A stretch of 64,000 nucleotides of DNA from Escherichia coli (lineage in GTDB: Bacteria; Pseudomonadota; Gammaproteobacteria; Enterobacterales; Enterobacteriaceae): NCBI RefSeq assembly GCF_017348835.2, contig NZ_CP071375.1. One strand, given 5' to 3'. The position numbers are program-made. Position 1 is the first letter of the stretch, and each line of letters starts with the position of its first letter. Shown one piece after another: positions 21,501 to 24,500 of the stretch.

Positions 21501-24500
21501 TCGTCACTCAGGACGTGAAATGATGAAAGAGAAAAAAACATCTCTCAACAATAATGTGAACCGCCCCGGAAATCCTGGAGACTAAACTCCCTGAGAAAGA
21601 GGTAAACAGGATGACTAAAAATACTCGTTTTTCCCCCGAAGTCCGTCAGCGGGCGATTCGTATGGTTCTGGAAAGTCAGGATGAATATGACTCACAGTGG
21701 GCGGCAATTTGTTCCATTGCCCCAAAGATTGGCTGTACGCCGGAGACTCTGCGTGTCTGGGTTCGCCAGCATGAGCGGGATACCGGGAGTGGTGATGGTG
21801 GACTCACCACCGCTGAACGTCAGCGTCTGAAAGAGCTGGAACGTGAAAATCGTGAACTGCGCCGCAGTAACGATATCCTTCGCCAGGCTTCCGCTTATTT
21901 TGCGAAGGCGGAGTTCGACCGCCTCTGGAAAAAATAATGCCACTGCTGGATAAGCTGCGTGAGCAGTACGGGGTCGGACCGGTATGCAGCGAACTGCATA
22001 TTGCCCCGTCAACGTATTACCATTGTCAGCAACAGCGACATCATCCGGATAAACGCAGTGCCCGTGCGCAGCACGATGACTGGCTGAAGAAAGAGATACA
22101 GCGCGTATACGATGAAAATCACCAGGTATACGGTGTGCGTAAAGTCTGGCGTCAGTTGTTACGGGAAGGTATCAGAGTGGCCAGATGCACTGTGGCACGT
22201 CTCATGGCAGTTATGGGACTTGCCGGTGTTCTCCGGGGTAAAAAGGTCCGCACTACCGTCAGCCGGAAAGCCGTTGCCGCATGCGACCGCGTAAACCGTC
22301 AGTTCGTGGCAGAACATCCAGACCAGTTGTGGGTGGCTGATTTTACCTGGGTAAGCACATGGCAGGGCTTCGTTTATGTGGCGTTCATCATTGATGTGTT
22401 CGCCGGATACATCGTGGGATGGCAGGTCTCATCATCCATGGAAACAACATTCGTGCTGGATGCACTGGAGCAGGCGTTGTGGGCCCGTCGGCCGTCCGGC
22501 ACAATCCATCACAGTGATAAAGGTTCTCAGTATGTATCGCTGGCCTACACGCAGCGGCTTAAGGAAGCCGGATTACTGGCATCAACAGGGAGTACTGGCG
22601 ACTCGTATGACAACGCGATGGCGGAGAGCATCAATGGTCTTTACAAAGCGGAGGTAATACACCGTAAGAGCTGGAAAAACCGTGCAGAAGTGGAACTGGC
22701 CACACTCACGTGGGTGGACTGGTATAACAATCGACGATTGCTGGAAAGGCTGGGCCATATTCCTCCGGCAGAAGCAGAAAAAGCTTATTATGCTTCCATC
22801 GGAAATAATGATCTGGCAGCCTGAGTTCACAGATAAAACACTCTCCAGGAAACCCGGGGCGGTTCACTCCGCTACACGGGTAGCGATCTTTGAACGATCC
22901 GCAATAGTTTTAAACCCACCGCCGCCCTGCCTTGCCAGCGTGACGAGCTGCTTACTTAATTTAGACATATCTGTCCTCCTTCACTAAGAAATACAGATCA
23001 AGATCTTCTCCCAAAATAAGGAAACGAGCACGATCTGTATTCTGGATTTTCACACAGAACTGATACATCTGGCCCCGACGGTACGGTTAGGTTTTGCGCT
23101 TCCTGCGTCTCGACTGATATCTGTGCATCGGGGTGACAATATGTTGAGTTTTTACGAGGTTCCCCAGCTCGCAGAGCTGTTCGCGGCGTATGCCGTCCTG
23201 ACGTTAGTCAGACTACCTCCATACGTCAGCTTTCACTGACATTGCCATCGATACCGAGTCGAATTTTCTCCTGAAGTTGATACGTCTGCTCTCATGGTTT
23301 CTCCGTGAATGGATGCGTTCCGTGATAAGACGTTATGGTTAAAAAGTGTGCTTAAAGATGCTATTTCCCCAGTCTGAACACCGTGACTACGTGTGCGTCA
23401 GACTGTACAGAGTGCTGAAAGACCGCATTCCGTCTGCTAAGACGGTGCCCTTTCGCGCAGCGTCACTTGGTATCGCTAACGCGCTTACACAAGTGACGCT
23501 GCACATATCCCGCCGCCAAATGCTGCCCTTGCAGATGCCAAATGTTCCAATTGGCATAGCAACGTGCCGCAAATGTTACCGGGATAAGCTGGACGTAAAT
23601 CCATAGAAAACAGCTTTAAGGATGTCGGGCAAACGTTGTTGCCCTGCGTTGAAGTGTACCTTTATCGCGTTTGCGATCACCGTTCTCAAAGGTTAAACGG
23701 TGTTATCGCCCGAAGGCTTCGTCTCTCAGATTACGACGATTTTGGCTGCGGCCACCCGAAGGCATCAGTCTCAGGCCGCGCTTCTTTCCCTATGATATTG
23801 GCTTGCGATCACCCGAAGGCGCTTCTCTCAAATCGCTGGCACAGTTCCGCTTGCGCTGAAGCATTGGCTGTTGTCGGAGACAACGGTGTAACGCTCGGAG
23901 AATAAAACTTTCTATGAGATCTTTCAATATATTGCTTTAATTTTCAGCATCTATTAATCTCGATTTATAGCGACATTGATAGGGAAATATTAATGGAAGG
24001 CGTAATAAAATGGTTCAGTGAAGAGAAAGGGTACGGATTCATCACTGCCGCGAATAATATAGATTACTATTTTCATGTCAGTGATATAAAAGGCTCATTG
24101 CTTCCTGAAAAGGGGCAAAATGCTCATTTTAATGCAGAATCGACATCTAAGGGCCATAGGGCAAAAAACATTACTCTTACAAAGAGTAATATTGCATCAG
24201 ATAATCGTCTGGATTTTTGCAAAAACTGTAATAAAAAAATCATTCCAAGAATGATTACCCACAGGGGTGAACCACAAAAAACCGTTTGCCCTTACTGTGC
24301 AACAGTAATAAAGAATTTCGATGAGAATTTTTTGTTGAAATTATCACAACCATATTTTATTTTTTCACTTACATGTCAAAAATGCTCTTTGTTTTTATCA
24401 TATGGATATTTAAGACCATAACCACCAAAAGGAAATAACATGCCTGACAAAATTAAACTTGAGATATTTTCAATTGAATACAGGAAAACTATTTTTGATT

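Follow-up and report, generated by a model that had tools for sequence, protein, structure and literature searches.

The DNA analysed here, a stretch of 64,000 nucleotides (nt) of Escherichia coli contig NZ_CP071375.1 (the window), is 99.9% identical to E. coli strain PE164 and contains a decayed integrative and conjugative element (ICE) of the SPI-7/pKLC102 type (mating-pair formation class G, MPF_G) that starts from tRNA-Phe (17433-17508). This ICE comprises, in order, an integrase, TraI, two small genes, an insertion sequence of the IS3 family, the remnant of an integrase-like gene, an EFASI RNA, a STAXI element, a divergent cassette encoding a cold-shock-domain (CSD) protein, an IS200 element and a fragment of TraG. 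The STAXI element, on the minus strand, is the main subject of this analysis. The scan against Rfam covariance models that a first-pass annotation of the DNA had called for matched STAXI (RF01728) at 23699-23885 with 77.2 bits, against a gathering score of 40.5, and over the full length of the model (positions 1-153 of 153). The feature belongs to a known RNA family, here represented by a relic.

STAXI was described by Weinberg et al. 2010 as a pseudoknot repeated two or three times, found near genes for Ssb, topoisomerase, antirestriction proteins and XerDC-type integrases; they did not decide between RNA and single-stranded DNA as its active form (PMC2864571). No function is described for it in the literature searched. 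The window copy lies in E. coli, with the remnant of an integrase-like gene downstream, and shares with the family the full-length match, the tandem pseudoknots, the UUCG tetraloops and the enterobacterial ICE setting that make it a member. It differs from the three-unit model in having four units, three of the UUCG type and one terminal, and from the family at large in carrying a 21-nt hairpin and a 12-nt insert and in being stranded in a decayed ICE. That it belongs to STAXI and folds as described below is practically certain. No other STAXI remnant was found in the island at E values up to 0.5, and no STAXI-like sequence among 50,697 phage records.

The first-pass annotation, made from the sequence alone, had noticed a triplicated motif here and offered three explanations: a structured RNA, an array of binding sites or decayed coding sequence. 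The three copies are present where it placed them (23705-23729, 23751-23774 and 23807-23831). Their common core, CCCGAAGGC, occurs three times in the window (23709, 23755 and 23812), with start-to-start spacings of 46 and 57 nt and all inside 112 nt, compared with a mean of 0.49 per window in shuffled sequence. On the minus strand it reads GCCUUCGGG, a hairpin of three pairs with a UUCG tetraloop (GCC-UUCG-GGY) that caps one pseudoknot unit. The complete element spans 23658-23885 on the minus strand and consists of a 5' hairpin and then four H-type pseudoknot units in tandem. Within a unit, pairing takes place between the 5-6 nt that follow a conserved CCAAU (PK5') and the 5-6 nt immediately 5' of the small capped hairpin (PK3'), and an outer stem of 6 bp (S1 with S1') closes the unit around a conserved UGNGA loop.

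The 5' hairpin, CGUUGUC-UCC-GACAACAG (23868-23885, minus strand; positions 1-17 of the Rfam model), is the palindrome GTTGTC-GGA-GACAAC of the earlier annotation, which is present at 23870-23884, two bases away from the 23872-23886 given for it. Its stem varies in a compensatory manner among homologues (GUUGUC/GACAAC, GUCGUC/GACGAC, GUCGC/GCGAC, GUUGC/GCAAC and GCUGUC/GACAGC). The units follow on the same strand. Unit 1 (23805-23867; CCAAU, PK5' GCUUC, S1 GCGAUU, UGAGA, PK3' GAAGC, GCC-UUCG-GGU, S1' GAUCGC) has a fully paired pseudoknot (5/5), includes the inserted 21-nt hairpin (23837-23857) and holds the third motif copy. Unit 2 (23748-23801; CCAAU, PK5' AUCAU, S1 GCGGCC, UGAGA, PK3' CUGAU, GCC-UUCG-GGU, S1' GGCCGC), with the 12-nt insert and 4/5 pseudoknot positions paired, holds the second. 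The first copy falls in unit 3 (23702-23745; CCAAA, PK5' AUCGUC, S1 GUAAUC, UGAGA, PK3' GACGAA, GCC-UUCG-GGC, S1' GAUAAC), where 5/6 positions are paired both in the pseudoknot and in S1 according to a hand reading. The terminal unit 4 (23658-23702; PK5' CACCGU, UU, S1 AACCUU, UGAGA, PK3' ACGGUG, AUCGC-AAAC-GCGAU, S1' AAAGGU) lies outside the Rfam match; its pseudoknot is completely paired (6/6), and in the alignment it corresponds in type to the final unit of canonical STAXI. The exact repeat of TTGCGATCACC that had been pointed out is real (23671 and 23803), its second copy at 23671 being there because unit 4 holds it. The modest Rfam score of the window copy is due to the linker insertions in units 1 and 2. 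The earlier annotation thus saw the motif and missed its strand, the pseudoknot, the fourth unit, the promoter, EFASI and the ICE context.

The fold is supported by comparison among homologues. Thirty-nine loci from about 20 enterobacterial genera, fetched with the integrase-like protein of an intact relative of this ICE in E. coli LF82, contain 56 STAXI and 34 EFASI Rfam matches, all on the gene strand. STAXI units were parsed by their small hairpin and outer stem only, the pseudoknot helix not being used for detection; the 5 nt after CCAAU and the 5 nt before the hairpin are nevertheless paired at 5/5 positions in 63 of the 73 units, with compensatory variants such as GCUUC/GAAGC, GUCCC/GGGAC, GUUCC/GGAAC, GCUCA/UGAGC, GAUCU/GGAUC and AUUUC/GAAAU. 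Formal pair counts on 49 unique units from 57 STAXI copies gave 99% of cells paired over the whole unit and 97.6% in the pseudoknot helix. Changes on both sides affect all five pseudoknot pairs (5/5), and compensatory changes on both sides affect 12 of the 14 pairs of the whole unit, in three helices per unit. None of 500 shuffles matched the observed pairing, a figure that overstates independence because the units are related and partly paralogous; the sounder evidence is the slid controls, in which 31-52% of cells are paired, together with the number of pair types. The last STAXI unit is a longer variant (..CCUUUGARA..) with a 6-bp pseudoknot, which covaries across 31 unique terminal units.

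The same counts distinguish the strands. All helices together hold 612 Watson-Crick pairs, 67 G.U pairs and no A.C pair, nor is there any A.C pair in the pseudoknot helix taken alone; a G.U to A.C ratio of 67:0 rules out the complementary strand as the one that folds. The hairpin loop is UUCG closed by C-G in 42 of the 49 unique units, and a G.U pair stands at the hairpin base in 39. Transcripts of homologues are on record: a Pectobacterium STAXI was detected by strand-specific RNA-seq (PMC4710047), and both STAXI and EFASI were detected in E. coli vesicles by reverse transcription quantitative PCR (RT-qPCR; PMC12370729).

A consensus scan predicted a sigma-70-type promoter at 23899-23927 on the minus strand, with a -35 hexamer TTGAAA (23922-23927), a 17-nt spacer and a -10 hexamer TATTCT (23899-23904), so placed that the transcript is likely to start near 23892, about 7 nt before the 5' hairpin. 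An alignment of 53 unique upstream regions, anchored on the first base of that hairpin, showed a -10 element TAnnnT at -19 to -14 (T in 37/53, A in 44/53 and T in 46/53), preceded by TTG within -44 to -37, about 17 nt further up, in 48 regions; G occurs at -7 in 44 of them, and the spacer and flanks are unconserved. Plasmid and genomic-island copies of STAXI, presented below, have the promoter at the same standard distance. Since the structure starts just after a duplex-type promoter in every genomic slot, it looks like an RNA leader. In the upstream region of a Serratia symbiotica STAXI (L049, 5890-6000), the -35 region TTGACATACGCTGTGTCTGAATCG is tripled in tandem. STAXI very probably acts as RNA, in the form of a promoter-proximal leader, because the promoter keeps a fixed distance, G.U and A.C pairs stand at 67:0 and the loops are of the C(UUCG)G kind. 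Structured RNA is accordingly the one of the three original explanations that the full-length Rfam match, the compensatory changes, the G.U bias and the promoter position bear out.

Between STAXI and the start of the integrase-like gene lie about 690 nt, in which several blocks are conserved from Xenorhabdus to E. coli and no open reading frame (ORF) is. The earlier statement that the region lacks a convincing ORF agrees with this: from the start of the truncated gene (22968) to the CSD gene (23993) there are short ORFs only, unconserved in length, position and sequence among 25 homologous leaders. A scan of the window found no terminator-like and no further promoter-like site between STAXI and the gene start. 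An inverted-repeat search found a perfect 13-bp repeat, GCAGCGTCACTTG-N20-CAAGTGACGCTGC, at 23457-23502. Its core, CGTCACTT-N14-34-AAGTGACG, for which the chance expectation in the window is 0, is present exactly and once per locus in 39 of 50 loci, including those on small plasmids and on a genomic island, and, where the upstream STAXI and EFASI were both mapped, always falls between them. Because the arms of the 13-bp repeat are invariant across genera while the loop varies, the repeat looks more like a site for a sequence-specific protein than like a simple RNA stem, and it is a candidate for the protein-recognition hairpin or the origin-of-transfer (oriT) hairpin of the segment. A second conserved block, TGCCAATTGGAACATTTGGCA at 23532-23557, holds an inverted repeat of its own that is invariant rather than covarying, which likewise suggests a protein site.

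EFASI (RF02957) was matched over its full model at 23111-23262 on the minus strand with 86.1 bits, above the gathering score of 51.2. It lies about 395 nt downstream of STAXI unit 4 on the same strand, 436 nt from the end of the Rfam match, and upstream of the integrase-type gene. This matches what PMC12370729 quotes from the Rfam entry, namely that EFASI follows STAXI at a distance of several hundred bp and precedes integrase genes. Among the 39 loci, EFASI precedes the integrase-like gene on the gene strand in 34, and the order STAXI-EFASI-gene holds in 32. The two RNAs have different folds, and an ICE carries one EFASI compared with three STAXI copies; whereas Rfam lists EFASI as a likely trans-acting small RNA, it is placed here in one transcript with STAXI. 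Pairing of the STAXI loops (UGNGA and CCAAU) with the downstream leader or with EFASI was considered and dropped, as a hand reading gave matches of only 4-6 nt and no covariation. A highly conserved block at 23070-23110 separates EFASI from the truncated gene.

Of the integrase-like gene only the first 33 codons are left (22868-22968, minus strand), as judged from the sequence, from the PGAP annotation of PE164 and from the intact LF82 homologue. The protein carries the Pfam domains Integrase_1 and Phage_int_SAM_2 and an R...HxxR...Y signature, and its family is common on plasmids of 3-10 kb; it would be a tyrosine-recombinase-like (MOB_M-type) relaxase. The gene is truncated by the IS3-family element (21556-22867, plus strand), recognised by its 26-nt terminal inverted repeats, its transposase ORFs and an ALIL frameshift pseudoknot at 21892-22008. 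By comparison with LF82, this element replaces about 4.5 kb of the ICE, including a second STAXI, an antirestriction gene, ArdC and an SH3 gene. The module in the window is a relic, as the gene and everything else in the leading cluster were lost to the IS3-family element.

Three STAXI copies are present in the intact LF82 ICE, each in the orientation of the core genes. The first precedes EFASI and the integrase-like gene and is the only one to survive in the window; the second directly follows the integrase-like gene and heads the antirestriction/ArdC cluster; and the third follows topoisomerase III and heads a DUF3577 gene. According to Cury et al., most RNA genes of MPF_G ICEs are either STAXI or radC RNAs (PMC5587801). 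About 50 nt after the second and third copies, a conserved attenuator-like element without an Rfam match is seen at many loci (for example L001, 13903-14007, minus strand), with alternating GGGAA/UUCCC segments able to pair in more than one way, a run of six U and, right at the AUG, a hairpin that contains the Shine-Dalgarno sequence (fold z = -3.1). In Xenorhabdus ICEs (L035, L036 and L042, at 4514-4599), a C4 antisense RNA (RF01695) stands just downstream of the integrase-like gene, in the slot that STAXI takes elsewhere.

The leader also travels without the gene. A more canonical STAXI, used as the query, led to copies on plasmids, and Rfam matching placed STAXI, the repeat and EFASI, colinear and co-oriented, on four elements that lack the integrase-like gene: the 3140-bp Rep_1 rolling-circle E. 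coli plasmid p3, whose STAXI scores 139 bits; a second E. coli plasmid, of 5.3 kb; the ColE1-like plasmid pHW4594 of Rahnella; and the urease/tellurite (TAI) island of O157-type strains (module coordinates 2261-3140 in L043, which is p3, 2259-3018 in L044, 1229-1856 in L045 and 7986-8766 in L048). In blastn comparisons these segments are the only similarity of the small plasmids and the TAI island to the ICEs. On p3, an extra partial STAXI unit precedes the Rfam match. Because the block is kept on plasmids and the TAI island without the integrase-like gene, it appears to have a function of its own that is not the regulation of that gene. A 2026 preprint on tyrosine-recombinase-like relaxases gives 44% as associated with MPF_G ICEs and describes TAI islands as oriT-only hitchers whose oriT resembles that of ICE SGI-4 (bioRxiv 10.64898/2026.01.13.699239). 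The integrase-like gene sits in just the position given in the preprint, with the STAXI-EFASI region corresponding to the upstream intergenic region.

The best overall explanation, held with slightly better than even confidence, is that a STAXI leader cassette heads the transcript of an ICE mobilisation module. The identity, strand and fold of STAXI, its promoter, the conserved layout and the portability of the module are observations; the roles of the relaxase and of oriT, and the effect of STAXI on the transcript, are proposed. STAXI would be a portable promoter-plus-leader cassette that intact SPI-7/pKLC102-type ICEs use at three promoters. At the one represented in the window, the RNA would start about 7 nt before the 5' hairpin, fold into four pseudoknot units and continue as a non-coding transcript of about 925 nt through the inverted repeat (23457-23502) and EFASI (23111-23262) into the integrase-like gene. 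The block would then be the mobilisation module of the ICE, made up of a promoter with STAXI, an oriT-like repeat, EFASI and a tyrosine-recombinase-type relaxase, and STAXI would set the amount, stability or processing of the module transcript. Just short of an even chance is given to the narrower proposition that the window copy heads the mobilisation-module transcript and that STAXI tunes it.

This organisation would be like that of Salmonella genomic island 1 (SGI1), in which an RNA across oriT yields a 3' small RNA essential for transfer. In SGI1, a ttgacg-16-taatat promoter drives an RNA of about 700 nt across oriT; the 3' part of this RNA, next to mpsA, is essential for mobilisation, while its structured 5' part is dispensable and affects level and maturation (PMC9299015). 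The SGI1 module with its sgm-sRNA shares with the window a common plan of sigma-70 promoter, non-coding RNA and inverted repeats (Nagy et al. 2021, PMC9299015; Kiss et al. 2019, PMC6414798). The SGI1 oriT lies inside the RNA, whose structured 3' core is next to the gene for a tyrosine-recombinase-like relaxase, and the likeness to STAXI-EFASI is one of layout. SGI1, moreover, is no self-transmissible MPF_G ICE but relies on IncC plasmids for its mobilisation, and its MpsA has no core-binding domain, unlike the Integrase_1 protein. A further step is tentative and given clearly less than an even chance: that STAXI and EFASI are the 5' and 3' domains of one transcript crossing the origin of transfer of MPF_G ICEs, and form a portable RNA-dependent transfer module served by the tyrosine-recombinase-like relaxase, which small plasmids and the O157 island might have copied to hitch-hike on ICEs.

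Several points weigh against these proposals, besides the relatedness of the units. Transcription of the window copy in its own strain is presumed from its sequence, and any identification of the repeat or module as oriT is indirect. Minimum-free-energy folding, another check suggested at the outset, failed to single out the element, with 23690-23895 folding no better than shuffles on either strand (z = +0.99 and +0.75, about +1); folding energy is uninformative here, and the case for the fold therefore rests on comparison and not on thermodynamics. Two of the three STAXI copies per ICE are away from the repeat and EFASI, so that STAXI itself is not specific to the initiation of transfer; it is best seen as a reusable leader cassette and not as the transfer signal itself. 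As for the relaxase, homologues of the integrase-like protein are named only 'integrase domain' in databases, with no tie to MOB_M, and a bridge search that set out from a Clostridium perfringens relative failed to arrive at pCW3-type plasmids. Furthermore, the ICE also carries a MOBH TraI, which may be the real relaxase.

Among the alternatives, a generic cis-acting 5' leader without any role in transfer fares best, and is still unlikely. With its very stable tandem pseudoknots at the head of three ICE operons, such a leader would protect the mRNA, for example against RNase E scanning, or act in antitermination, like HK022 put or EAR RNAs; that it precedes the repeat and EFASI would then be coincidence. 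STAXI is indeed promoter-proximal at a fixed distance in all three ICE slots, its units vary in number from 2 to 4 and the genes downstream differ; the other two copies precede the attenuator-like element, about 50 nt further on, and the C4 leader RNA can take the same slot in Xenorhabdus. The small plasmids and the TAI island, however, keep STAXI, the repeat and EFASI with no co-oriented gene downstream. In addition, classical 5' stabilisers tolerate a limited number of unpaired 5' nt, and the roughly 7 nt at the 5' end, taken from a predicted start site, exceed that limit.

The C4 antisense RNA of P1/P7 (RF01695), whose proximity to STAXI Weinberg et al. noted (PMC2864571), is likewise a structured RNA encoded in a leader; its fold is unrelated, and it pairs with a target further down its own operon, whereas a hand reading found no convincing complementarity of that kind for STAXI. 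Another structured RNA typical of MPF_G ICEs, the radC RNA (RF01754), is linked to antirestriction-type genes (PMC5587801) and differs from STAXI in structure.

A trans-acting small RNA has a low probability, lower than that of the generic leader. Its repeated modules would bind a host, ICE or defence-system protein, so as to titrate or recruit it, as CsrB-type sponges and type III antitoxin RNAs do. This would explain the association with antirestriction genes, to whose functions Cury et al. tie STAXI (PMC5587801), and would fit the repeated modules with their invariant single-stranded CCAAU and UGNGA, the detection of STAXI as an abundant small RNA species and the example of the SGI1 RNA, which acts in trans and is proposed to recruit proteins (PMC9299015). 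No canonical terminator follows the window STAXI, however, the single-stranded motifs may be tertiary contacts of the pseudoknots rather than binding sites, and the RT-qPCR and RNA-seq windows leave discrete ends undefined.

Action as folded single-stranded DNA, the possibility raised by Weinberg et al. 2010, is improbable. STAXI would then be a priming site (a single-strand origin, sso, or initiation site, ssi) or an attC-like structure for the tyrosine-recombinase-like enzyme. It does lie beside DNA-processing genes and an oriT-like repeat, and it is found on a Rep_1 rolling-circle plasmid, which needs a single-strand origin somewhere; ICEs can carry sso elements (PMC5812530), and structure-finding methods do not tell single-stranded DNA from RNA (PMC5737381). 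Against it stand the conserved duplex-type promoter at a fixed distance with the structure beginning at the transcript start, the RNA-stabilising C(UUCG)G loops and conserved G.U pair, the exclusion of the complementary strand by pair asymmetry, and the transcription of homologues. On p3, rep and STAXI are on opposite strands, so that the displaced strand would, judging from gene orientation, carry the complement; the pC194-type nick motif CTTGATA is absent from this plasmid. The Frpo/ssi elements of plasmid leading regions, reportedly described as single-stranded DNA promoters by Masai and Arai in 1997, were considered as a model and rejected, as the STAXI hexamers have no conserved complementary arm and the DNA fold of the template strand is unremarkable (z = -0.5). 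Like STAXI, Frpo/ssi is present several times in an element, always on one strand and in front of ssb-like and antirestriction genes (Samuel et al. 2024, PMC11541004). In Frpo, however, the -35 and -10 elements are part of the stem of a long DNA hairpin, while in STAXI no conserved hairpin includes the hexamers, the structure follows the start and the folding strand is the RNA-sense strand.

The remaining two explanations of the earlier annotation, a double-stranded binding-site array and decayed repetitive coding sequence, are effectively excluded: CCAAT and TGAGA do recur at intervals of 46-57 nt and plus-strand ORFs of 62 and 89 amino acids (aa) overlap the region, but neither duplex sites nor codons produce compensatory changes on both sides of 12/14 pairs, the repeats at 46 and 57 nt do not keep one reading frame, no ORF is conserved in the 25 leaders and the covariance model is matched in full.

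A link between STAXI and the CSD cassette was also rejected. The earlier description of the motif as upstream of this cassette is true of its position and not of its function, since the minus-strand element would be transcribed away from CSD; the cassette is divergent and is missing from some ICE variants in which the STAXI-EFASI leader is kept, in matches covering 89-90%, up to about 23893. The cassette (23993-25005, plus strand) has three genes, encoding a 142-aa protein with an N-terminal CSD and a Cys-rich tail and two small membrane-like proteins, and is probably cargo, being absent from some variants of the same ICE. Elsewhere in the island, beside the TraG fragment, is an ORF of 2978 aa (27032-35968, minus strand) with a TcdA/TcdB-type glycosyltransferase domain according to the PE164 annotation, which makes it a large gene of toxin-like kind. 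The island runs from tRNA-Phe (17433-17508) to a tRNA with CAT anticodon (38732-38807; Met according to ARAGORN, Ile according to PGAP) and is flanked by yqgA on one side and mug/rpoD on the other. These are presumably far apart on the K-12 map, so that a rearrangement or large deletion is likely. Further Rfam matches in the window are the IS200 transposase with STnc490 (25118-25709, minus strand), two tandem Sib antitoxin RNAs (59124-59649, plus strand), an FMN riboswitch (63116-63264, plus strand) and copies of naRNA4 (5443-5513 and 51134-51204).

The window copy in itself matters little: it is a routine motif that Rfam can annotate, in a dead ICE where its cis partner gene has been destroyed. 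STAXI as a family has been without a function since 2010, and the comparison made here argues that it is an RNA. One of its copies is now placed in a conserved, portable block of STAXI, an invariant repeat and EFASI that resembles the mobilisation module of SGI1. If the proposed role is correct, two orphan RNA families, described in 2010 and 2017, would be linked to conjugative mobilisation, and the mobilisation of small plasmids and of a pathogenicity island of E. coli O157:H7 would be explained. The single precedent of SGI1, an RNA needed for conjugative mobilisation, would thereby be extended to a large family of elements.

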